This document shows positions 1 to 10,696 of a stretch of 10,696 bases of DNA, one piece after another. Where the stretch lies: the UHGV virus genome UHGV-1749428; one strand, given 5' to 3'. The stretch is from a virus. Positions within the stretch are counted from its first letter, which is position 1; the number at the start of each line of letters is the position of its first letter. Under the pieces are notes generated by a model. It was given only the letters and a program-made list of their open reading frames with translations. It searched no databases and was not told the DNA's origin. Position numbers and translations under genes: made by a program.

Positions 1-285
1 ACGGGCTGGACGAAACTAACGGGAGGTTTTTTGACGAAAAAACAGTTTATCAAGCTATATGATGAATGCTCAAAACATATTCACGTAAGGAACCCATATC
101 GGGTTAGGGAAAACTCGCTGGGGTTTCATAAAAAAGTTCCAGAGTATTTATCAAGAATTGAAACTCTACTGTTAAAGCACATTGTTTCTCTTGCCGGGAA
201 TGAAGAACTTCTTCTTGTAGATGTGCCTCATTATGAAGACTCTGTAACAGCTATAAAAATGAGCCACCTCGTTAAAATGGGGTGA
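1..285 (+). CDS. 3' end of an unrecognised cargo ORF (hypothetical protein), probably 5'-truncated by the window edge
   Basis: Frame 1 is open from nt 1 to the TGA at 283-285, so the ORF likely continues upstream; the ORF track begins it at a TTG at 31. About 38% GC over 1-300, unlike the phage genes. The translation (…FIKLYDECSKHIHVRNPYRVRENSLGFHKKVPEYLSRIETLLLKHIV…) matches nothing I can name. Confidence 0.4.
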   Translation, partial: TGWTKLTGGFLTKKQFIKLYDECSKHIHVRNPYRVRENSLGFHKKVPEYLSRIETLLLKHIVSLAGNEELLLVDVPHYEDSVTAIKMSHLVKMG

Positions 286-321
286 AAAATAAGCAATAAA
301 TAGTCGATTCTAGTGAACGGT

Positions 322-346
322 CGGCTATTTTGAGCCGGATTTTTAT
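322..346 (+). terminator. Weak candidate intrinsic terminator downstream of the cargo ORF
   Basis: CGGCT (322-326) / loop ATTTTG / AGCCG (333-337), followed by GATTTTTAT. The stem is only 5 bp, so this is weak. Confidence 0.3.
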
Positions 347-503
347 ACTGTTTCCCCTTAATTACAGTCGTTTCTATTCATGCATGTGCTATTGCATCGA
401 ATTGCATGCGTTTTCATCCCCTGTTGCTTATGAGCGTTGTCAGTGCTGGCGCATTCTCGGTATGTTCATGCAACTGCATCAAAATCGCCCCATGAAGCGG
501 GCG

Positions 504-522
504 GGCGAGGCGGGGAAAGCAC
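504..522. other. cos: cos cohesive-end site of a P2-like phage
   Basis: GGCGAGGCGGGGAAAGCAC matches the 19-nt cohesive-end sequence of P2/186-family phages as I recall it. It sits about 170 bp beyond the 3' end of Q, as at the P2 left end. Confidence 0.8.
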
Positions 523-662
523 TGCGCGCTGGCGGTGGTGCTGATTTTATTTTTTCGGCGTCTCAGCGCGTCGTGATGGCGTTTAGATTGTGTGCCGGGG
601 CGTCGGTGTGTCTGCGGGCTGTTTTGCGTGGAGGTGAGCGTGTGAGGGCGTGATGACGGGGT

Positions 663-686
663 GTAAAAAAGCCGCCCGCAGGCGGC
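663..686 (-). terminator. Rho-independent terminator downstream of the Q-P operon
   Basis: Perfect 6-bp GC stem GCCGCC (671-676) / loop CGCA / GGCGGC (681-686). The A6 run at 665-670 becomes a U-tract on the minus-strand transcript, 5 nt past the Q stop codon. Confidence 0.7.
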
Positions 687-691
687 GATGT

Positions 692-1726
692 TCAGCCGTT
701 GTCAGTGTCCAGTGAGTAGTTTTTAAAGCGGATGACCTCCTGACCGAGCCAGCCGTTTATCTCGCGGATCCTGTCCTGTAGCGGGATAAGCTCATTGCGG
801 ACAAAGACCTTTGCCACTTTCTCAATATCGCCCAGCGACCCGACGTTCTCCGGCTTGCCGCCCATCAACTGAAAGGGGATGCGGTGCGCGTCCAGCAGGT
901 CAGCGGCGCTGGCTTTTTTGATATTAAAAAAATCGTCCTTCGTTGCCACTTCACTGAGCGGGATAATTTTAATGCCGTCGGCTTTCCCCTGCGGGGCATA
1001 GAGAAACAGATTTTTAAAGTTGTTGCGGCCTTTCGACTTCACCATGTTTTCGCGGAGCATTTCGATATCGTTGCGATCCTGCACGGCATCGGTGACGTAC
1101 ATGATGTATCCGGCATGTGCGCCATTTTCGTAATACTTGCGGCGGAACAGCGTGGCCGACTCATTCAGCCAGGCAGAGTTAAGGGCGCTGAGATATTCCG
1201 GCAGGCCGTACAGTTCCTGATTAATATCCGGCTCCAGCAGGTGAAACACGGAGCCGGGCGCGAAGGCTGTCGGCTCGTTGAAGGACGGCACCCACCAGTA
1301 AACATCCTCTTCCACACCACGGCGGGTATATTTTGCCGGTGAGGTTTCCAGCCTGATAACTTTACCGGTGGTGCTGTAACGCTTTTCCAGAAACGCATTA
1401 CCGAACACCAGAAAATCCAGCACAAAGCGGCTGAAATCCTGCTGGGAAAGCCACGGATGCGGGATAAATGTCGACGCCAGAATATTGCGTTTGACGTAAA
1501 TCGGTGAGCTGTGATGCACGGCAGCACGCAGGCTTTTTGCCAGACCGGTAAAGCTGACCGGTGGCTCATACCATCTGCCGTTACTGATGCATTCGACGTA
1601 ATCCAGAATGTCACGGCGGTCGAGTACCGGCACCGGCTCGCCAAAGGTGAATGCCTCCATTTTCGGGGTGCTGGCGGTCATTTTTTTTGCCGCAGGTTGC
1701 GGTGTTTTCCCTTTTTTCTTGCTCAT
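692..1726 (-). CDS. Q: Portal protein gpQ
   Basis: 344 aa, the same length as P2 gpQ, and the translation (MSKKKGKTPQPAAKKMTASTPKMEAFTFGEPVPV…) is recognisable as the P2 portal. The start overlaps the P stop (ATGA). Confidence 0.93.
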   Translation of the reverse strand: MSKKKGKTPQPAAKKMTASTPKMEAFTFGEPVPVLDRRDILDYVECISNGRWYEPPVSFTGLAKSLRAAVHHSSPIYVKRNILASTFIPHPWLSQQDFSRFVLDFLVFGNAFLEKRYSTTGKVIRLETSPAKYTRRGVEEDVYWWVPSFNEPTAFAPGSVFHLLEPDINQELYGLPEYLSALNSAWLNESATLFRRKYYENGAHAGYIMYVTDAVQDRNDIEMLRENMVKSKGRNNFKNLFLYAPQGKADGIKIIPLSEVATKDDFFNIKKASAADLLDAHRIPFQLMGGKPENVGSLGDIEKVAKVFVRNELIPLQDRIREINGWLGQEVIRFKNYSLDTDNG

Positions 1727-3498
1727 CAGTAAAACTCCAGAATGGTGGATGTCAGCGGGGTGCTGATACCGGCGGTGAGTGGCTCATTTAACAGGGCGTG
1801 CATGGTCGCCCAGGCGAGGTCGGCGTGGCTGGCTTCCTCGCTGCGGCTGGCCTCATAGGTGGCGCTGCGTCCGCTGCTGGTCATGGTCTTACGGATAGCC
1901 ATAAACGAGCTGGTGATGTCGGTGGCGCTGACGTCGTATTCCAGACAGCCACGGCGGATAACGTCTTTTGCCTTGAGCACCATTGCGGTTTTCATTTCCG
2001 GCGTGTAGCGGATGTCGCGCGCGGCAGGATAGAACGAGCGCACGAGCTGGAACACGCCGACACCGAGGCCGGTGGCATCAATACCGATGTATTCGACGTT
2101 GTATTTTTCGGTGAGTTTGCGGATGGATTCAGCCTGGGTGGCAAAGTCCATGCCTTTCCACTGGTGACGCTCAAGTATTCTGAATTTGCCACCGGCCACC
2201 ACCGGCGGTGCCAGCACCACGCATCCGGCGCTGTCTCCACGGTGTGACGGGTCGTAACCAATCCATACCGGACGTGAGCCGAACGGATTGGCGGCAAACG
2301 GCGCATAGTCTTCCCATTCTTCCAGCGTGTCGACCATGCAGCGTTGCAGCTCCTCGAACGGGAACACCGATGCCTTGTCGTCAACAAATTCACACATGAA
2401 CAGGTTTTTAAAATCGTCGGCGCTGTTTTCACGTTTGAGCTGCTCAATGTCGAACAGTGTGCAGCCACCTTTCAGGGCATCCTCAATGGTGACAATCTGC
2501 CGCCACTGGCCGTCCGCACAGAGAAGACCACCGGCAAGGGCGTTATGACTGACGTCGATTTCCACGCGTTCGGCGGCGCTGGCGCGTCCCCGGTTAAACA
2601 GTTCACCCGACCAGAACGGGTAGGCGTCGTGCGCCAGCGTGGACGGGGTGGAGAAATAGGTCGAGCGCAGGTGACTCTGTGAGGCCATACCTGATGCCAC
2701 CTTACGCAGTACCTGAAAATTCGGGATCCAGAAAATCTCGTCGACGTACAGGTCGCCGTTATGGCTCTGCGCGGTGTTGGAGTTGGTGCCGAGAAAAATC
2801 AGTTTTGCGCCGTTATTGCCCAGGACAATCGGGTCACCGGTCAGGTCAACGTCAACCAGACGGGCAAAGGCGATGATGTATTCGCGGAACACATACGCCT
2901 GTGTTTTACTGGCCGACAGAAAAATCTGGTTATGACCGGTTTTCAGGGCGCGCAGCAGCGCCTCGCGGGAAAAATAAAACGTCGCGCCAATCTGGCGGGA
3001 TTTCAGTATATCGCGGATGCGGTGCTCAAGCCCGGCGCGATACCAGTGCAACTGATAGTCGAAAGACTGCTCAAAGAAAATCTGCTCCAGCTTTTCGATG
3101 GCTTCGTCACTGAAAAAATTCTTTTTCGGTTTGCGACGCTCGCCTTTGTTGCGGTTAGCGACGTTCGGATTAAGGTCTGCCTCGTTGCCGGTCTGGCTGT
3201 AGCGGTTGACCCGTGCCAGTCGTTCAATCTGGCGTCCCAGCAGGTCAATTTCCTTGAAGTCACCGCCGGTTTTCTGCGGTTTGATGATGAGCTGGGTCAG
3301 CCGCGCTTCCAGGCTCATTTCGACACGGCTGATGGGGGCAACGCTGTCCCAGCCGTCGCGCTGTTTCCAGCTCTGCACCGTCGGGCGTTTCATCTGCAAC
3401 ATGGCGGCAATCTGCGGCACGGAAAACCCCTGCCAGTACAGCAGCGCCGCCTGACGACGCGGGTCGTGTAAAAGAGTGGTGTCTGTGGTGATGGTCAT
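1726..3498 (-). CDS. P: Terminase large (ATPase) subunit gpP
   Basis: 590 aa from the ATG at 3496-3498 (MTITTDTTLLHDPRRQ…), preceded by GAGG 5 nt upstream. The ORF track's longer start at 3528 adds 10 residues with no RBS. Length and sequence match P2 gpP. Confidence 0.93.
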   Translation of the reverse strand: MTITTDTTLLHDPRRQAALLYWQGFSVPQIAAMLQMKRPTVQSWKQRDGWDSVAPISRVEMSLEARLTQLIIKPQKTGGDFKEIDLLGRQIERLARVNRYSQTGNEADLNPNVANRNKGERRKPKKNFFSDEAIEKLEQIFFEQSFDYQLHWYRAGLEHRIRDILKSRQIGATFYFSREALLRALKTGHNQIFLSASKTQAYVFREYIIAFARLVDVDLTGDPIVLGNNGAKLIFLGTNSNTAQSHNGDLYVDEIFWIPNFQVLRKVASGMASQSHLRSTYFSTPSTLAHDAYPFWSGELFNRGRASAAERVEIDVSHNALAGGLLCADGQWRQIVTIEDALKGGCTLFDIEQLKRENSADDFKNLFMCEFVDDKASVFPFEELQRCMVDTLEEWEDYAPFAANPFGSRPVWIGYDPSHRGDSAGCVVLAPPVVAGGKFRILERHQWKGMDFATQAESIRKLTEKYNVEYIGIDATGLGVGVFQLVRSFYPAARDIRYTPEMKTAMVLKAKDVIRRGCLEYDVSATDITSSFMAIRKTMTSSGRSATYEASRSEEASHADLAWATMHALLNEPLTAGISTPLTSTILEFY

Positions 3499-3671
3499 GA
3501 ATACCTCGCCGTGATGAATACACGGCAAGGCTACTGAGTCGCGCCCCGCGATTCGCTAAGGTGCTGTTGTGTCAGTGATAAGCCATCCGGGACTGATGGC
3601 GGAGGATGCGCATCGTCGGGAAACTGATGCCGACATGTGACTCCTCTAATCACTATTCAGGACTCCTGACA
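3499..3671. promoter_or_regulatory. Divergent P/O intergenic control region (expected late promoters for the P-Q and O-N-M-L operons)
   Basis: 173-bp non-coding gap between divergently transcribed P and O; in P2 this holds the Ogr-dependent late promoters P_P and P_O. No clean TGT-N12-ACA dyad found by eye; a direct repeat GACTCCT lies at 3639-3645 and 3661-3667. Confidence 0.5.
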
Positions 3672-4526
3672 ATGGCAAAAAAAGTCTCAAAATTCTTTCG
3701 TATCGGCGTTGAGGGTGACACCTGTGACGGGCGTGTCATCAGTGCGCAGGATATTCAGGAAATGGCGGAAACCTTTGACCCGCGTGTCTATGGTTGCCGC
3801 ATTAACCTGGAACATCTGCGCGGCATCCTGCCTGACGGTATTTTTAAACGTTATGGCGATGTGGCCGAACTGAAGGCCGAAAAGATTGACGATGATTCGG
3901 CGCTGAAAGGCAAATGGGCGCTGTTTGCGAAAATCACCCCGACCGATGACCTTATCGCGATGAACAAGGCCGCGCAGAAGGTCTACACCTCAATGGAAAT
4001 TCAGCCGAACTTTGCCAACACCGGCAAATGTTATCTGGTGGGGCTGGCCGTCACCGATGACCCGGCAAGCCTCGGCACGGAATACCTGGAATTCTGCCGC
4101 ACGGCAAAACACAACCCCCTGAACCGCTTCAAATTAAGCCCTGAAAACCTGATTTCAGTGGCAACGCCCGTTGAGCTGGAATTTGAAGACCTGCCTGAAA
4201 CCGTGTTCACCGCCCTGACCGAAAAGGTGAAATCCATTTTTGGCCGCAAACAGGCCAGCGATGACGCCCGTCTGAATGACGTGCATGAAGCGGTGACCGC
4301 TGTCGCTGAGCATGTGCAGGAAAAACTGAGCGCCACTGAGCAGCGCCTCGCTGAGATGGAAACTGCCTTTTCCGCACTTAAGCAGGATGTGACTGACAGG
4401 GCGGATGAAACCAGTCAGGCATTCACCCGCCTGAAAAACAGTCTCGACCACACCGAAAGTCTGACCCAGCAGCGCCGCAGCAAAGCCACCGGCGGTGGCG
4501 GTGACGCCCTGATGACGAACTGCTGA
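3672..4526 (+). CDS. O: Capsid scaffolding protein gpO
   Basis: 284 aa from the ATG at 3672 (MAKKVSKFFRIGVEGDTCDGRV…), with AGGA 9 nt upstream. Length and sequence match P2 gpO; the ORF track's upstream start at 3606 is an extension. Confidence 0.93.
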   Translation: MAKKVSKFFRIGVEGDTCDGRVISAQDIQEMAETFDPRVYGCRINLEHLRGILPDGIFKRYGDVAELKAEKIDDDSALKGKWALFAKITPTDDLIAMNKAAQKVYTSMEIQPNFANTGKCYLVGLAVTDDPASLGTEYLEFCRTAKHNPLNRFKLSPENLISVATPVELEFEDLPETVFTALTEKVKSIFGRKQASDDARLNDVHEAVTAVAEHVQEKLSATEQRLAEMETAFSALKQDVTDRADETSQAFTRLKNSLDHTESLTQQRRSKATGGGGDALMTNC

Positions 4527-4584
4527 CCGGCGTCAGTCAGTCCGGGAAAACCTTCACGATTAACCCTTAATTTCAGGAAAAACT

Positions 4585-5658
4585 ATGCGCCAGGAAACCC
4601 GCTTTAAATTTAATGCTTACCTGTCCCGTGTTGCCGAACTGAACGGCATCGACGCCGGTGATGTGTCGAAAAAATTCACCGTTGAACCGTCGGTCACCCA
4701 GACCCTGATGAACACCATGCAGGAGTCCTCTGATTTTCTGACCCGCATCAACATTGTGCCGGTCAGCGAAATGAAAGGGGAAAAAATTGGCATCGGTGTC
4801 ACCGGCTCCATCGCCAGCACCACCGACACCGCCGGTGGCACCGAGCGTCAGCCGAAGGACTTCTCGAAGCTGGCGTCAAACAAGTACGAATGCGACCAGA
4901 TTAACTTCGATTTTTATATCCGCTACAAAACGCTGGACCTGTGGGCGCGTTATCAGGATTTCCAGCTCCGTATCCGTAACGCCATTATCAAACGCCAGTC
5001 CCTTGATTTCATCATGGCCGGTTTTAACGGCGTGAAGCGTGCCGAAACCTCTGACCGCAGCAGCAATCCGATGCTGCAGGATGTGGCGGTCGGCTGGCTG
5101 CAGAAATACCGCAATGAAGCCCCGGCGCGCGTGATGAGCAAGGTCACTGACGAGGAAGGTCGCACCACCTCTGAGGTCATCCGCGTGGGTAAGGGCGGTG
5201 ATTATGCCAGCCTTGACGCACTGGTGATGGATGCGACCAACAACCTGATTGAGCCGTGGTATCAGGAAGACCCTGACCTTGTGGTGATTGTGGGGCGTCA
5301 GCTACTGGCGGACAAGTATTTCCCCATCGTTAACAAGGAGCAGGACAACAGCGAAATGCTGGCCGCTGACGTCATCATCAGCCAGAAACGCATCGGCAAC
5401 CTGCCAGCGGTACGCGTCCCGTACTTCCCGGCGGATGCGATGCTCATCACGAAGCTGGAAAACCTGTCCATCTACTACATGGATGACAGCCATCGCCGCG
5501 TGATTGTGGAAAACCCGAAACTCGACCGCGTGGAGAACTACGAGTCAATGAACATTGATTACGTGGTGGAAGACTACGCCGCCGGTTGTCTGGTGGAAAA
5601 AATTAAGGTCGGTGATTTCTCCACACCGGTTAAGGCGACCGCAGAGCCGGGAGCGTAA
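4585..5658 (+). CDS. N: Major capsid protein gpN
   Basis: 357 aa, the same length as P2 gpN (MRQETRFKFNAYLSRVAELNGIDAG…), with an AGGA RBS 7 nt upstream of the ATG. Confidence 0.95.
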   Translation: MRQETRFKFNAYLSRVAELNGIDAGDVSKKFTVEPSVTQTLMNTMQESSDFLTRINIVPVSEMKGEKIGIGVTGSIASTTDTAGGTERQPKDFSKLASNKYECDQINFDFYIRYKTLDLWARYQDFQLRIRNAIIKRQSLDFIMAGFNGVKRAETSDRSSNPMLQDVAVGWLQKYRNEAPARVMSKVTDEEGRTTSEVIRVGKGGDYASLDALVMDATNNLIEPWYQEDPDLVVIVGRQLLADKYFPIVNKEQDNSEMLAADVIISQKRIGNLPAVRVPYFPADAMLITKLENLSIYYMDDSHRRVIVENPKLDRVENYESMNIDYVVEDYAAGCLVEKIKVGDFSTPVKATAEPGA

Positions 5659-5661
5659 CCG

Positions 5662-6399
5662 ATGACGAGTCCCGCACAGCGCCACATGATGCGGGTCTCG
5701 GCAGCGATGACCGCGCAGCGGGAAGCCGCCCCGCTGCGACATGCAACTGTCTATGAGCAGATGCTGGTCAAGCTGGCCGCAGACCAGCGCACACTGAAAG
5801 CGATTTATTCAAAAGAGCTGAAGGCCGCGAAAAAACGCGAACTGCTGCCGTTCTGGTTGCCGTGGGTGAACGGTGTGCTGGAGCAGGGCAAAGGTGCACA
5901 GGATGACATTCTGATGACGGTCATGCTGTGGCGTCTGGATACCGGCGATATTGCCGGTGCGCTGGAGATTGCCCGTTATGCCCTGAAGTACGGTCTGACC
6001 ATGCCGGGTAAACACCGCCGCACCCCGCCGTACATGTTCACCGAGGAGGTGGCGCTCGCGGCCATGCGCGCCCACGCTGCCGGTGAGTCTGTGGATACCC
6101 GCCTGCTGACGGAGACCCTTGCACTGACCGCCACGGCAGACATGCCTGATGAAGTGCGCGCAAAGCTGCACAAAATCACCGGTCTGTTTCTGCGTGACGC
6201 TGGTGATGCCGCCGGTGCGCTGGCTCACCTGCAACGTGCGACACAGCTCGACTGTCAGGCAGGCGTCAAAAAAGAGATTGAACGACTGGAGCGGGAGCTG
6301 AAACCGAAGCCGGAGCCAAAAGCGGTCACCCGCGCCCCGCGTAAGACCCGGAGTGCGACACCGGCAAAACGTGGACGCCCGAAAAAGAAAGCCAGTTAA
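5662..6399 (+). CDS. M: Terminase small (endonuclease) subunit gpM
   Basis: 245 aa immediately after N (3-nt gap, GGAG RBS inside the end of N); sequence recognisable as P2 gpM, with a basic C-terminal tail. Confidence 0.9.
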   Translation: MTSPAQRHMMRVSAAMTAQREAAPLRHATVYEQMLVKLAADQRTLKAIYSKELKAAKKRELLPFWLPWVNGVLEQGKGAQDDILMTVMLWRLDTGDIAGALEIARYALKYGLTMPGKHRRTPPYMFTEEVALAAMRAHAAGESVDTRLLTETLALTATADMPDEVRAKLHKITGLFLRDAGDAAGALAHLQRATQLDCQAGVKKEIERLERELKPKPEPKAVTRAPRKTRSATPAKRGRPKKKAS

Positions 6400-6498
6400 C
6401 AACCGAATGCGCCCCGCGCCAGGGCGGCACGCCGGTCTGTGAGGGTGAATCACCTGACACTGTACCGGCGTCCACCGCCCGACTTTTCAGAGGTAGTC

Positions 6499-7008
6499 AT
6501 GATGACGCTGATTATTCCGCGAAAGGAGGCTCCCGTGTCTGGTGAGGGTACGGTGGTCATCCCGCAACCGGCAGGCGACGAGCCGGTGATTAAAAACACG
6601 TTCTTTTTTCCCGATATCGACCCGAAGCGCGTCCGGGAACGTATGCGCCTTGAGCAGACCGTCGCCCCCGCCCGTCTGCGAGAGGCCATCAAGTCAGGCA
6701 TGGCGGAGACGAATGCGGAGCTGTACGAGTACCGCGAACAGAAAATTGCTGCCGGTTTTACGCGTCTGGCGGACGTCCCGGCGGACGACATCGACGGTGA
6801 AAGCATCAAAGTTTTTTACTACGAGCGCGCCGTGTGTGCGATGGCGACCGCGTCGCTTTATGAGCGTTATCGCGGTGTGGATGCCAGTGCGAAAGGCGAC
6901 AAGAAGGCTGACAGCATTGACAGCACCATCGATGAACTGTGGCGGGATATGCGCTGGGCAGTGGCGCGCATCCAGGACAAGCCGCGCTGCATCGTGAGTC
7001 AAATCTGA
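6499..7008 (+). CDS. L: Head completion/stabilisation protein gpL
   Basis: 169 aa from the ATG at 6499 (MMTLIIPRKEAPVSGEG…), with AGAGG 5 nt upstream. Matches P2 gpL length; the ORF track start at 6439 is an extension. Confidence 0.92.
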   Translation: MMTLIIPRKEAPVSGEGTVVIPQPAGDEPVIKNTFFFPDIDPKRVRERMRLEQTVAPARLREAIKSGMAETNAELYEYREQKIAAGFTRLADVPADDIDGESIKVFYYERAVCAMATASLYERYRGVDASAKGDKKADSIDSTIDELWRDMRWAVARIQDKPRCIVSQI

Positions 7009-7211
7009 TGAAGACCTTTGCGCTACAGGGCGACACGCTCGACGCCATTTGTGTCCGGTATTACGGGCGCACTGAGGGCGTGGTCGAGGCCGTGCTCGCC
7101 GCAAATCCGGGACTGGCTGAACTGGGTGCGGTGCTGCCACACGGCACCGCCGTCGAACTGCCCGACGTTCAGACCGCGCCCGTGGCTGAAACTGTCAATC
7201 TGTGGGAGTAA
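7008..7211 (+). CDS. X: Tail protein gpX
   Basis: 67 aa (MKTFALQGDTLDAICVRYYGRTEGVVEAVLAANPGL…), start overlapping the L stop (ATGA). Matches P2 gpX; the ORF track start at 6939 lies inside L in another frame. Confidence 0.9.
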   Translation: MKTFALQGDTLDAICVRYYGRTEGVVEAVLAANPGLAELGAVLPHGTAVELPDVQTAPVAETVNLWE

Positions 7212-7214
7212 CGC

Positions 7215-7496
7215 ATGACAGCAGAAGAAAAAAGCGTCCTGTCGCTTTTCATGATTGGGGTGCTGATTGTTGTCGGCAAGGTGCTTGCCGGTGGTGAACC
7301 CATCACCCCGCGTCTGTTTATCGGGCGCATGTTGCTCGGTGGTTTTGTCTCAATGGTTGCCGGTGTTGTTCTGGTGCAGTTTCCTGACCTGTCACTGCCT
7401 GCGGTGTGCGGCATTGGCTCCATGCTGGGTATCGCCGGTTATCAGGTGATTGAGATTGCCATTCAGCGCCGCTTTAAGGGCAGGGGGAAACAGTAA
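7215..7496 (+). CDS. Y: Holin gpY
   Basis: 93 aa with hydrophobic transmembrane segments and a charged C-terminus (…QRRFKGRGKQ); length and sequence match P2 Y. It is the first gene of the lysis cassette. Confidence 0.92.
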   Translation: MTAEEKSVLSLFMIGVLIVVGKVLAGGEPITPRLFIGRMLLGGFVSMVAGVVLVQFPDLSLPAVCGIGSMLGIAGYQVIEIAIQRRFKGRGKQ

Positions 7497-7993
7497 TGCC
7501 GGTAATTAAAACACATCAGAATATCGCCGCCTTTCTCGACATGCTGGCCGTGTCCGAAGGGACGGCGAATCATCCGCTGACGAAAAACCGGGGCTATGAC
7601 GTGATAGTCACCGGACTGGACGGGAAGCCGGAAATTTTCACCGACTACAGTGACCACCCGTTCGCGCATGGCCGACCGGCGAAGGTATTTAACCGTCGCG
7701 GTGAAAAGTCCACGGCCTCCGGTCGCTATCAGCAGCTTTACCTGTTCTGGCCGCACTACCGCAAACAGCTTGCCCTGCCGGATTTCAGTCCGTTGTCACA
7801 GGACAGACTCGCCATTCAGTTGATCCGCGAACGCGGTGCACAGGATGACATCCGGGCGGGACGCATTGAGCGCGCCATTTCACGCTGTCGCAATATCTGG
7901 GCGTCCCTGCCGGGAGCCGGTTACGGTCAGCGTGAGCATTCACTGGAAAAACTGGTCACCGTCTGGCGTACCGCTGGCGGCGTACCGGCTTAA
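7496..7993 (+). CDS. K: Endolysin gpK (lambda R-like lysozyme/transglycosylase family)
   Basis: 165 aa (MPVIKTHQNIAAFLDMLAVSEGTANHP…), start overlapping the Y stop (TAATG) with a GGGGG RBS upstream. Matches P2 gpK. Confidence 0.93.
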   Translation: MPVIKTHQNIAAFLDMLAVSEGTANHPLTKNRGYDVIVTGLDGKPEIFTDYSDHPFAHGRPAKVFNRRGEKSTASGRYQQLYLFWPHYRKQLALPDFSPLSQDRLAIQLIRERGAQDDIRAGRIERAISRCRNIWASLPGAGYGQREHSLEKLVTVWRTAGGVPA

Positions 7994-8007
7994 ACGGAGT
8001 AAACACC

Positions 8008-8433
8008 ATGAAGAAATTATCCCTTTCACTGATGCTGAACGTGTCGCTGGCGCTGATGCTGGCACTGTCCCTGATTTACCCGCAGAGCGTGGCCGTCAGT
8101 TTTGTCGCCACCTGGGCGATTCTGGCGACGGTTATCTGTGTGGTTGCCGGTGGTGTCGGCGTGTATGCCACTGAGTATGTACTGGAACGCTACGGACGGG
8201 AGCTGCCGCCGGAATCGCTGGCCGTGAAGATTGTCACGTCGCTGTTTTTGCAGCCGGTGCCGTGGCGCAGACGGGCGGCGGCTCTGGTGGTGATGGTGAC
8301 GACGTTTATCTCGCTGGTCGCTGCCGGGTGGATTTTTACCGCGCTGATTTATCTTGTGACGTCGCTGTTTTTCCGGCTGATACGTAAAGCCTGTCGTCAG
8401 CGTCTTGAGGGGCGGGAACTATGTCAAAGCTGA
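8008..8433 (+). CDS. lysA: Lysis-timing membrane protein LysA
   Basis: 141 aa, strongly hydrophobic with several predicted transmembrane segments, located after the endolysin as in P2. Confidence 0.88.
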   Translation: MKKLSLSLMLNVSLALMLALSLIYPQSVAVSFVATWAILATVICVVAGGVGVYATEYVLERYGRELPPESLAVKIVTSLFLQPVPWRRRAAALVVMVTTFISLVAAGWIFTALIYLVTSLFFRLIRKACRQRLEGRELCQS

Positions 8434-8846
8434 TGACTGTGCTGGTCGTGTTGTTATCGCTGGCGGTGGCCGGTCTGTTTCTGGTGAAACACAAAAATGC
8501 CAGCCTGCGCGCCTCGCTGGACAGGGCGAATAACGTCGCCAGTGAACAGCAGACGACCATCACCATGCTGAAAAATCAGCTTCATGTTGCACTCACCAGA
8601 GCAGACAAAAACGAGCTGGCGCAGGTGGCACTGCGTCAGGAACTGGAGAACGCCGCGAAGCGTGAAGCACAGCGCGAGAAAACCATCACGAGGTTACTGA
8701 ATGAAAACGAAGATTTTCGCCGCTGGTACGGTGCTGACCTGCCTGATGCTGTGCGCCGGTTGCACCAGCGCCCGGCCTGCACCGACGCCAGTGATTGTCG
8801 CCAACGCCTGCCCGAAAGTGAGCCTTTGCCCGATGCCGGGCAGTGA
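8421..8846 (+). CDS. lysB: Rz-like inner-membrane spanin LysB
   Basis: 141 aa with an N-terminal transmembrane segment (MSKLMTVLVVLLSLAVAGLFLV) followed by a charged, coiled-coil-like periplasmic region; overlaps the lysA end by 13 nt. Confidence 0.88.
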   Translation: MSKLMTVLVVLLSLAVAGLFLVKHKNASLRASLDRANNVASEQQTTITMLKNQLHVALTRADKNELAQVALRQELENAAKREAQREKTITRLLNENEDFRRWYGADLPDAVRRLHQRPACTDASDCRQRLPESEPLPDAGQ

Positions 8847-8991
8847 CCCGCAGACGAACGGCGATTTAAGTGCTGATATCCGGCAGCTTGAGAACGCGCT
8901 GGCACGCTGTGCCAGCCAGGTAAAAATGATTAAACACTGTCAGGACGAAAACGATGCTCAAACCCGACAGCCTGCGCAGGGCGCTGACTGA
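8701..8991 (+). CDS. lysC: Rz1-like outer-membrane lipoprotein spanin LysC
   Basis: 96 aa starting in the +1 frame inside lysB and running into R; signal peptide with a Cys-containing lipobox-like motif (…LTCLMLCAGCTS…) and Pro-rich mature region. Same length and arrangement as P2 lysC. Confidence 0.82.
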   Translation: MKTKIFAAGTVLTCLMLCAGCTSARPAPTPVIVANACPKVSLCPMPGSDPQTNGDLSADIRQLENALARCASQVKMIKHCQDENDAQTRQPAQGAD

Positions 8992-9421
8992 TGCCGTCAC
9001 GGTGCTGAAAACTAACCCCGATATGCTGCGGATATTCGTGGATAACGGGAGTATTGCCTCCACACTGGCGGCGTCGCTGTCATTCGAAAAGCGTTACACG
9101 CTCAATGTCATTGTGACCGACTTTACCGGTGATTTTGACCTGCTCATCGTGCCGGTGCTGGCGTGGCTGCGGGAAAATCAGCCCGACATCATGACCACCG
9201 ACGAAGGCCAGAAAAAGGGCTTCACGTTTTATGCAGACATCAACAATGACAGCAGCTTTGATATCAGTATCAGCCTGATGCTGACCGAGCGCACGCTGGT
9301 CAGTGAGGTTGACGGTGCGCTGCATGTGAAGAATATCCCGGAACCTCCGCCGCCGGAGCCGGTCACCCGCCCGATGGAGCTTTATATCAATGGTGAACTG
9401 GTGAGTAAGTGGGATGAATGA
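8954..9421 (+). CDS. R: Tail completion protein gpR
   Basis: 155 aa (MLKPDSLRRALTDAVTVLKTNPDMLRIF…), with a PEPPPPEP tract near the C-terminus; length and sequence match P2 gpR. Confidence 0.92.
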   Translation: MLKPDSLRRALTDAVTVLKTNPDMLRIFVDNGSIASTLAASLSFEKRYTLNVIVTDFTGDFDLLIVPVLAWLRENQPDIMTTDEGQKKGFTFYADINNDSSFDISISLMLTERTLVSEVDGALHVKNIPEPPPPEPVTRPMELYINGELVSKWDE

Positions 9422-9866
9422 GTTTAAGCGTTTTGAAGACCGGCTGACCGGACTGATTGAATCGCTGTCACCGTCAGGGCGTCGGCGACTGAGCGCCGAA
9501 CTGGCGAAACGTCTGCGGCAGAGTCAGCAGCGTCGGGTGATGGCACAGAAAGCCCCGGACGGCACACCCTACGTGCCACGCCAGCAGCAGAGCGCCAGAA
9601 AAAAGACCGGTCGCGTTAAGCGAAAAATGTTTGCGAAACTTATCACCAGTCGTTTTTTGCATATCCGCGCCAGCCCGGAGCAGGCATCAATGGAGTTTTA
9701 CGGCGGGAAGTCACCGAAAATCGCCAGTGTGCATCAGTTCGGTCTGTCGGAAGAAACCCGGAAAGACGGTAAGAAAATTGATTATCCGGCGCGTCCTCTG
9801 CTCGGCTTTACCGGTGAGGATGTGCAGATGATTGAAGAGATTATCCTGGCTCACCTCGACCGTTAG
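9414..9866 (+). CDS. S: Tail completion protein gpS
   Basis: 150 aa (MNEFKRFEDRLTGLIESLSPSGRRR…), overlapping the R end by 8 nt; length and sequence match P2 gpS. Confidence 0.92.
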   Translation: MNEFKRFEDRLTGLIESLSPSGRRRLSAELAKRLRQSQQRRVMAQKAPDGTPYVPRQQQSARKKTGRVKRKMFAKLITSRFLHIRASPEQASMEFYGGKSPKIASVHQFGLSEETRKDGKKIDYPARPLLGFTGEDVQMIEEIILAHLDR

Positions 9867-9932
9867 TTGTGCCATTCCTGACACCTCATCGTCACATTGC
9901 CGCCGGTATGACCCGGCGGCATCCTTCCCGTT
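9867..9932 (+). promoter_or_regulatory. S-V intergenic region with a perfect GC-rich hairpin; expected site of late promoter P_V
   Basis: GCCGCCGG (9899-9906) / loop TATGAC / CCGGCGGC (9913-9920), 12 nt before the V start codon, with no U-tract after it. In P2 an Ogr-dependent late promoter precedes V; promoter elements were not identified by eye. Confidence 0.35.
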
Positions 9933-10536
9933 ATGAACACTCTCGCAAATATTCAGGAACTCGCGCGCGCACTGCGCAACATGATTCGTACCGGCCTTGT
10001 CGTCGAAACCAACCTTAAAGCCGGTCGCTGCCGTGTGCAGACCGGCGGCATGTGCACCGACTGGCTTCAGTGGCTGACCCATCGCGCCGGACGTTCGCGC
10101 ACATGGTGGGCACCTTCCGTGGGGGAACAGGTGCTGATTCTGGCTGTGGGCGGTGAACTCGACACGGCGTTCGTTCTGCCGGGGATTTATTCCGGCGATA
10201 ACCCCGCGCCGTCTGCGTCGGCGGATGATTGAGTATGAACCCGAAACCAGTGCACTCACGGTAAGCGGAATTAAAACGGCCAGCGTGACGGCTTCTGATT
10301 CTGTTACTGCCACGGTGCCGGTGGTCATGGTGAAAGCATCAACCCGCGTCACCCTGGACACACCGGAGGTGGTCTGCACCAACAGGCTGATTACCGGCAC
10401 GCTGGAAGTGCAGAAGGGCGGGACGATGCGCGGCAACATTGAACACACCGGCGGTGAACTCTCATCAAACGGGAAGGTACTGCATACCCATAAACACCCC
10501 GGCGACAGCGGCGGCACAACCGGGAGCCCTCTATGA
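9933..10536 (+). pseudogene. V: Baseplate central spike gpV, split by a frameshift into a 99-aa N-terminal ORF (9933-10232) and a C-terminal ORF in the +1 frame (ATG at 10225, ending 10536)
   Basis: The N-terminal ORF (MNTLANIQELARALRNMIRTG…SASADD*) stops at TGA 10230-10232. The V-like sequence resumes in the +1 frame (MIEYEPETSALTVSGIKTASV…HTHKHPGDSGGTTGSPL). The two parts total about 201 aa against 211 aa recalled for P2 gpV, consistent with a deletion of about 32 nt near 10224-10228. Confidence 0.75.
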
Positions 10537-10696
10537 CAGCGCGTTATCTCGGAATGAATCGCAGTGATGGCCTGACTGTCACTGACCTTGAGCATATCAG
10601 CCAGAGTATCGGCGATATCCTGCGCACACCGGTCGGCTCACGGGTGATGCGTCGTGATTACGGCTCGTTGCTGGCGTCAATGATTGACCAGCCGCA
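10533..10696 (+). CDS. W: Baseplate assembly protein gpW (gp25-like), 3'-truncated by the window end
   Basis: ATG at 10533 overlapping the V stop (ATGA); translation MTARYLGMNRSDGLTVTDLEHISQSIGDILRTPVGSRVMRRDYGSLLASMIDQP… matches the P2 gpW N-terminus. Absent from the ORF track because no stop codon falls inside the window. Confidence 0.88.
   Translation, partial: MTARYLGMNRSDGLTVTDLEHISQSIGDILRTPVGSRVMRRDYGSLLASMIDQP

Follow-up and report, generated by a model that had tools for sequence, protein, structure and literature searches.

What occupies the AT-rich stretch in front of the cohesive end of this prophage, how far does it extend, and what might it do? The window, by which we mean the whole 10,696-nucleotide stretch of DNA that was analysed, corresponds to the left arm of a P2-like (Peduovirus) prophage, as seen from ORF calling and from the RefSeq annotation of a prophage in Escherichia coli APEC 102026 (hereafter L001) that is identical over positions 1-700. 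Window 1-700 is identical to L001 12001-12700, with window nucleotide 1 at L001 12001. A preliminary description had taken the beginning of the window for foreign cargo reaching up to cos, and the reading frame within it for the final gene of a cassette lying mostly upstream.

Layout of the window and position of cos

The following features of the window were identified.

1-285, plus strand: 3' half of a gene for a 197-residue protein, codons 104-197 and the TGA stop (translation, RefSeq, family alignment)
1-331, plus strand: in-window part of an AT-rich single-gene cargo module (blastn breakpoints, composition)
321-346, plus strand: terminator-like hairpin TCGGCTATTTTGAGCCGG followed by ATTTTTAT (hairpin 321-338, L001 12321-12338; consensus scan)
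332-503, no strand assigned: non-coding, conserved P2-like right end leading to cos, backbone and not cargo (alignments of relatives)
504-522, no strand assigned: cohesive-end (cos) sequence of 19 nt, ggcgaggcggggaaagcac (sequence search)
692-1726, minus strand: portal gene gpQ, the conserved right-hand border of the hotspot (ORF list, RefSeq of the identical prophage)
1726-3528, minus strand: terminase gpP (ORF list, RefSeq of the identical prophage)
Further genes, first group: scaffold gpO, capsid gpN, small terminase gpM, gpL, gpX
Further genes, second group: holin, endolysin, LysA, LysB, LysC, gpR, gpS and the first baseplate genes

The AT-richness reported earlier for the start of the window was borne out, with 38.9% GC over positions 1-285 and 38.1% over 1-331 against 56.9% over 504-10696. 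The plus-strand ORF said to be open from nucleotide 1 was also confirmed by translation, frame 1 running through 94 codons to a TGA at 283-285. The 19-mer at 504-522 is a sequence that we take to be the cohesive end of P2-type phages, and three linear phage records (R18C, S164 and HQ103) have their first base exactly at query position 504; on these two grounds 504-522 was assigned as cos. The point at which similarity to other P2-like phages begins varies with the phage compared (332, 381, 439 or about 462-470), and the GC content of 332-503 is 46.5%. The idea of foreign cargo up to cos thus held for the presence of an AT-rich foreign segment but not for its extent, since that segment ends near 331 and positions 332-503 belong to the conserved backbone.

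RefSeq places a 63-residue "hypothetical protein" (WP_032154512.1, phrog_17350) on the plus strand at window 462-653 (L001 12462-12653). This ORF spans cos, so that virion DNA would split it, and the backbone around it is GC-rich and non-coding; the annotation is probably an artefact.

A single gene in a short AT-rich module

Extension upstream through L001 yielded the remainder of the gene and no cassette. The complete gene is 594 nt long (L001 11692-12285) and encodes a 197-residue protein (WP_021519103.1, phrog_13799); only 309 nt of it, together with a leader of about 149 nt, lie upstream of the window. Leader, single gene and terminator-like hairpin are the contents of a module of about 0.79 kb (L001 11543-12331, window -457 to 331) with 36% GC, as against 53.6% in gpA and 56.9% in the remaining window. 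The AT-rich tract (31-39% GC) spans only about L001 11560 to 12400. The junctions were mapped by blastn of L001 against three P2-like prophages (L092, L093 and L094) with the same backbone and other cargo. All three comparisons put the left junction at L001 11540-11542; for the right junction they gave L001 12332, 12381 or 12463, which correspond to window 332, 381 or 463. The hairpin TCGGCTATTTTGAGCCGG stands 36 nt past the stop codon and coincides with the earliest of these right-hand junctions; its fold is unexceptional (z = -1.3), which makes for a weak terminator call. Repeats within window 286-700 were limited to short matches at chance level.

The gene order in L001 is gpA, a DUF3850/ASCH+DUF7415 protein of 150 residues, a 68-residue ORF, a gap of 225 nt, the 197-residue ORF, cos and gpQ. 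The same order of gpA, DUF3850, 68-residue ORF, 197-residue gene, cos and gpQ is found in Yersinia phage vB_YpM_50. The DUF3850/ASCH gene and the 68-residue ORF are a semi-conserved part of the backbone, common to prophages with different cargo. DUF3850 was assigned to the backbone and not to the cargo because it occurs in P2's own old-tin region (Table S3, PMC9122126). The insert is thus only about 0.79 kb long and holds one gene, and the genes upstream of it are backbone, contrary to the expectation of a cassette with its bulk upstream. In L001 the two backbone genes occupy 10809-11467, the 68-residue ORF being phrog_11386, and in many P2-like prophages they separate gpA from the cargo site. 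RNA binding is the putative function of ASCH domains.

Comparison with the Enterobacter and Salmonella orthologues gave dN/dS values of 0.07-0.09. By these low values and by the conservation of the protein across phyla, the ORF is a real gene under strong purifying selection and no chance open frame. The protein (22.9 kDa) is basic and soluble, with a pI of 9.5 (family median 8.55), and a calculation of sequence properties found no hydrophobic segment of transmembrane strength. A simple consensus scan of the plus strand found no convincing sigma-70 promoter upstream of the gene; the sole hint of one, a TAATAT/TATAAT-like box located some 50-55 nt ahead of the ATG, is partly kept among enteric orthologues.

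In one E. coli genome (NZ_CM196105.1, 2873476-2876439) the gene is split by ISApl1, an IS30-family element, at about window nucleotide 32. This interruption shows that the gene is dispensable for maintenance of the prophage.

Exchange of cargo at the hotspot

The gpA-gpQ locus is a described P2 defence hotspot (Rousset et al. 2022, PMC9122126). Its loci average about 3.2 kb and often contain several genes, and partition systems and a toxin, the cytolethal distending toxin, are also found there; eight further systems have been cloned from it, three of which were defensive (PMC9122126). Across 427 cargo groups at the hotspot, 20.8% match DefenseFinder (bioRxiv 10.1101/2024.10.15.618418). WP_021519103 is itself entered as "hypothetical" in Table S5 of PMC9122126, in arrangements of the form "DUF3850/ASCH + hypothetical (+ hypothetical)". 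The accession was absent from full-text literature searches and from the DefensePredictor supplements, and no report of its cloning or testing was found there.

Of 5426 complete E. coli genomes, 21 contain window 1-700 with 97-100% identity, and vB_YpM_50 matches it at 98.4%. The cos-Q part only is matched by 2153 E. coli genomes, and the 197-residue gene is present in 21 of 2153 genomes with the adjacent cos-Q region. In E. coli KTa005 (L092, 1035-1165) the hotspot is nearly empty, with 129 bp of filler. The same site is occupied in L093 by a DUF6864 gene plus a hypothetical gene, and in L094 by a hypothetical gene of 298 codons; the cargo of these two prophages, on the same gpA-DUF3850-68-residue backbone, consists of uncharacterised genes unrelated to the 197-residue gene.

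Orthologues also occupy the gpA-gpQ hotspot of P2/186-like prophages in Enterobacter (76% identity) and Salmonella (72%). Their backbones differ (P2-type Cox versus 186-type CI/CP76/DinI), and so does their co-cargo. One Enterobacter locus (L006) has the orthologue as the only gene between gpA and gpQ, and other cargo stands beside it in Salmonella and in one Enterobacter locus. Two P2-like IMG/VR contigs place a homologue in the same position.

As cargo, the 197-residue gene is foreign to the P2-like prophage and lies in its variable gpA-cos-gpQ (old/tin) hotspot. The earlier view of the segment before cos as a variable locus therefore stands, given the carriage of the gene in 21 of 2153 genomes, the definable junctions and the swapping of cargo across P2-like prophages. 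In its place between gpA and cos/gpQ, its AT-rich composition and its exchange between syntenic prophages, the gene resembles the hotspot cargo described in PMC9122126. The hotspot, the abundance of unannotated cargo in it and the cataloguing of WP_021519103 as hypothetical were already known. What is new is the module with its junctions, the recurrence of the gene across genera, the size and spread of its family and the fact that nothing related to it is known by sequence or structure.

Size and distribution of the protein family

A search of 5.8 billion proteins matched 80 clusters, none with a Pfam domain; identities were about 50% in Pseudomonas, Shewanella and Halopseudomonas and about 35% in Sulfuricurvum and Acidobacteria. 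A profile search of 1.84 billion representatives returned 2618 proteins at E <= 1e-3, each standing for a cluster at 50% identity, and 595 at E <= 1e-30. Nearly all of the 2618 are about 200 residues long. An alignment of 45 members contains 14 invariant positions: R48, E52, A55, L59, F93, Y94, P95, L114, F119, Y123, H131, P135, L159 and H163, the last seven of which (L114 to H163) are encoded inside the window. The motifs LQLRKxLELIAFSSL, INPNFYP and GFLTKxxFxxLYDKCGxxLHxxNPF recur in this alignment.

For genomic context, 76 homologue loci were taken from contigs representing one genome per species. They come from Gamma-, Beta- and Alphaproteobacteria, Acidobacteriota, Verrucomicrobiota, Nitrospinota, Chloroflexota, Thermotogota, Cyanobacteria, Campylobacterota, Bdellovibrionota and Desulfobacterota. 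Relatives are carried by four plasmids, including the 6.6-kb MobQ plasmid pPspOM7. Viral sequences hold few: tblastn of 50,697 phage records matched only Yersinia phage vB_YpM_50, and the family is rare in viral contigs, with 6 loci among the 2.9 million of IMG/VR. By this distribution the family is large, patchy and horizontally scattered.

Plasmid pPspOM7 of Paracoccus sanguinis (6587 bp) encodes a 29%-identical member (L095, 1708-2322) as one of its eight annotated genes, together with a RelE/ParE module. Some homologues are longer. P0086 has a hydrophobic N-terminal extension with predicted membrane helices (residues 1-100), and C-terminal extensions are present in P0092 and P0098 (about 130-150 residues, mutually alike) and in P0173 (about 180 residues). 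No Pfam domain was found fused in the longer homologues (P0083, P0086, P0089, P0092, P0098, P0173 and others); their extensions might be clues to partners of the family.

Predicted structure and similarity searches

The structure of the full-length protein was predicted with AlphaFold2 from the 45-sequence alignment (pLDDT 91.4, pTM 0.88). The model has helices at 3-28, 36-59, 63-73, 79-89, 116-130 and 142-161, a beta-hairpin at 96-108 and three short strands within 162-193. Foldseek comparison with the PDB and BFVD returned nothing at E <= 1e-3, and a profile search against PDB sequences gave no match (best E = 0.43). Pfam and NCBIfam were without a match for the protein, for the 45 family members and for eight distant or plasmid members. 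No model of PADLOC-DB v2.0.0, whose models go up to 2023, matches the protein or the eight distant members, and the single PADLOC match across the 45 members, to Cas11a (E = 6e-4), is spurious. The PHROG family phrog_13799 was matched over the full length (E = 1.7e-109) and by all 45 aligned members; this family has no annotated function, and the match supplies a name only. The protein had at the outset been assigned to no P2 gene or described family, and these searches with profiles and structures (Pfam, PADLOC, Foldseek) agree, phrog_13799 being its only match.

HepT chains recur among the weak Foldseek matches (E > 1), with scores equal to those of de novo designed four-helix bundles. Compared with HepT of HepT-MntA (7ae2, 8xdj, 5yep), the 197-residue protein has an additional beta-hairpin and a C-terminal three-stranded sheet, and the likeness scores no better than that to the designed bundles. 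The hallmark of HEPN proteins is the catalytic motif Rx4-6H. In the 45-member alignment neither of the invariant histidines H131 and H163 is preceded by a conserved arginine at a distance of 4-6 residues; around them the motifs are LHxxNP(F/Y) and LLxxH, and no model of the Pfam HEPN clan was matched at E <= 0.1 by the 45 members or the eight distant ones. For want of the motif and of a Pfam HEPN match, the protein was not assigned to the HEPN group.

Genes neighbouring the homologues

Neighbours were compared by crude ORF calling and all-against-all BLASTP of four genes on each side of the 76 loci. No conserved partner gene was found, the largest group of related neighbours occurring in just four of the 76. 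Small ORFs on the same strand often flank the homologues. Most members have housekeeping genes beside them, standing alone between, for example, those for aconitase, GcvP, DNA ligase, MutS or ArgG. A search around the 197-residue gene for a tandem-repeat (ToxI-like) array or an Rfam RNA found none, which argues against a type III toxin-antitoxin layout.

A minority of homologues adjoin genes of Pycsar, Thoeris, restriction-modification, MADS or DISARM systems. At the positions immediately adjacent to non-enteric homologues (144 genes) PADLOC gave single strong matches to DrmD, a type III methyltransferase, ThsB, SoFic, PycC, PD-T4-6, a reverse transcriptase (RT), BrxH, mad6 and PDC-M34B. One position further out (137 genes) the matches were to ZorE, PDC-M34A, a methyl-directed REase, PycTM/2TM effectors, RT, mad3 and LmuA. 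In one metagenomic locus a Type ISP enzyme adjoins the homologue, and beside a few members Pycsar, PDC-M34 and MADS are complete. Clear defence genes lie within two genes on either side in an estimated 10-15% of about 71 loci, a raw share without a background control. As gene-context evidence, this proximity is only suggestive of an immune role.

Possible roles of the gene

The P2 hotspot has repeatedly been a source of new immune systems, among them old, tin, DprA-PRTase and several PD systems. Because the 197-residue gene is unannotated and is found as cargo at this site in three genera, it is a cheap and well-motivated candidate to clone; its appeal is increased by bacterial relatives numbering in the thousands and by a confidently predicted structure that has no neighbour. 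If it is defensive, it would be a compact single-gene system of 0.6 kb and would explain what a "dark" protein family of some size does; if it is not, it would help to calibrate the share of hotspot cargo that is not defence. As it stands, the locus is an ordinary example of a known phenomenon, with a candidate role only.

The best explanation overall, to which we give an even chance, is that the gene encodes a stand-alone phage-exclusion or defence protein and is a solo cargo gene of the hotspot. The accessory gene would stand alone and be expressed from the prophage, and its single product would exclude other phages or trigger an abortive-infection-type defence of the lysogen. Such shielding of the lysogen by one protein is the likeliest activity of the gene product that can be proposed from sequence and context, with a probability a little short of even. 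Like known single-protein defences (for example the P2-hotspot protein DUF4238, and Abi proteins that are encoded by one gene and have about 200 residues), the product is small, cytoplasmic and prophage-carried, and its gene shares with theirs its own expression signals and relatives scattered in chromosomes and plasmids. It differs from the DUF4238 protein and the Abi proteins in having homology to none of them, and PADLOC and Pfam gave no sequence relationship to old, tin or the validated systems of the hotspot (DUF4238, the three-hypothetical-protein system 3HP, DprA-PRTase and TIR+TM). Against a defence role stands the lack of any PADLOC v2 match even among 45 diverse members, and of any in Pfam or NCBIfam. 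Also counting against this explanation are the solitary position of most homologues amid housekeeping genes, the small share of loci near defence genes, the rarity of the family in viral contigs, HEPN-like matches that are no stronger than those to designed bundles, the failure of the simple scan to reveal a convincing sigma-70 promoter, and the gene's dispensability as seen from the ISApl1 insertion.

More ambitious forms of this defence reading are less probable. Tentatively, and with the balance leaning against it, the family could be a new and widespread group of single-protein anti-phage effectors, of which the 197-residue protein would be the first to attract notice, with about 2600 clusters at 50% identity in more than ten phyla. 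Its fold, a helical bundle with a small beta-sheet, and its conserved R/E/H/N centre would then be without counterpart among described defence proteins and solved structures, and its mechanism would be an uncatalogued one. As for the mechanism of the single protein, a rather doubtful guess is that it works in the cytoplasm, either as an enzyme or as an effector directed at nucleic acid, and that invariant polar residues make up its active centre. The candidate centre would comprise R48 and E52 of helix 2, H131, N134 and P135 at the end of helix 5 and H163 at the end of helix 6, and the protein would act in the manner of HEPN toxins and similar Arg/His nucleases built as helical bundles, while standing outside the HEPN family.

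An unlikely reading, though one with substance, is that the gene is a non-defence moron that aids the lysogen or the phage in another way, for example by regulation, by modifying stress responses or metabolism, or by lysogenic conversion. About 80% of the cargo groups at the old/tin hotspot lack a known defence match, and some of this cargo, such as the partition systems and cytolethal distending toxin, is plainly non-defensive; most homologues, moreover, lie between housekeeping genes and not in defence islands, and no defence model matches them. This has to be set against a family that is patchy, horizontally mobile, always solo and present on plasmids, with some members beside complete defence systems, and against the many invariant polar residues, which suggest an enzyme and not a structural or regulatory adaptor.

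It is improbable that the protein is the toxin or addiction part of a toxin-antitoxin-like module with an unrecognised antitoxin (a small ORF, an RNA or self-inhibition). The small same-strand ORFs beside many homologues would fit such a module, as would the weak structural likeness to HepT toxins and the occurrence of members in mobile-element hotspots and near the RelE/ParE module of the 6.6-kb plasmid. The 76 loci, however, share no conserved neighbour, the ToxI-like array and Rfam RNA are missing, and in the Enterobacter locus L006 nothing but the orthologue lies between gpA and gpQ.

Slightly more improbable still is a counter-defence factor or a factor in inter-element competition of the P2-like phage, such as an anti-restriction or anti-satellite protein. 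In favour of it, the gene adjoins cos, and P2-type phages do have a small number of anti-defence genes (28 of the 1511 P2 elements surveyed in PMC13586616). The family is, however, mostly chromosomal or plasmid-borne and lies outside phages (one phage among the 50,697 records and the six viral-contig loci), and the basic protein is not an acidic DNA mimic.

The reading that the ORF closes an accessory or defence cassette of several genes is contradicted and retains very little probability. The average size and frequent multi-gene content of hotspot loci (PMC9122126) had favoured it, as does the other cargo that accompanies the orthologue in Salmonella and at one Enterobacter locus. However, in vB_YpM_50 and the 21 E. 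coli genomes the upstream genes are gpA, DUF3850/ASCH and the 68-residue ORF, all of them backbone, the AT-rich insert of 0.79 kb holds one gene, and in other genera the co-cargo differs case by case, with no conserved partner.

That the ORF might be the end of old, of tin or of another conserved P2 gene from the replication region, or no translated gene with homologues at all, is refuted: tblastn of the 50,697 phage records found the protein in vB_YpM_50 and not in P2, Pfam found no OLD, TOPRIM or ATPase domain, the gene is present in just 21 of 2153 cos-Q genomes of E. coli, and the gene, under strong purifying selection (dN/dS 0.07-0.09), belongs to a family of 2618 clusters. An old or tin orthologue was likewise rejected, there being no Pfam domain and no P2-encoded relative by tblastn.

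The S-V interval and baseplate gene V

The region of the ORF had also been called the only plausible seat of an undescribed system in the window, and it is the only cargo site here, because the gap between S and V (9866-9933) is only 66 nt. This position is a second cargo site, empty in the window. In the near-identical APEC 102026 prophage an extra gene of 246 codons lies between S and V (L001 21890-22630), at the position of P2 orf30, and Cys/His motifs can be seen in it by eye (CGSSDDITREH...CRVCNS).

Baseplate gene V, next to this site, is present in the window (9933-10536) as two ORFs in different frames, 9933-10232 and 10153-10536. Compared with the intact 211-residue V of L001, a deletion of 32 nt with its breakpoint at about 10226/10227 accounts for the split, and tblastn recovers V residues 1-98 and 109-211. 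Either the prophage is defective in baseplate assembly or the split is an error of sequence assembly.
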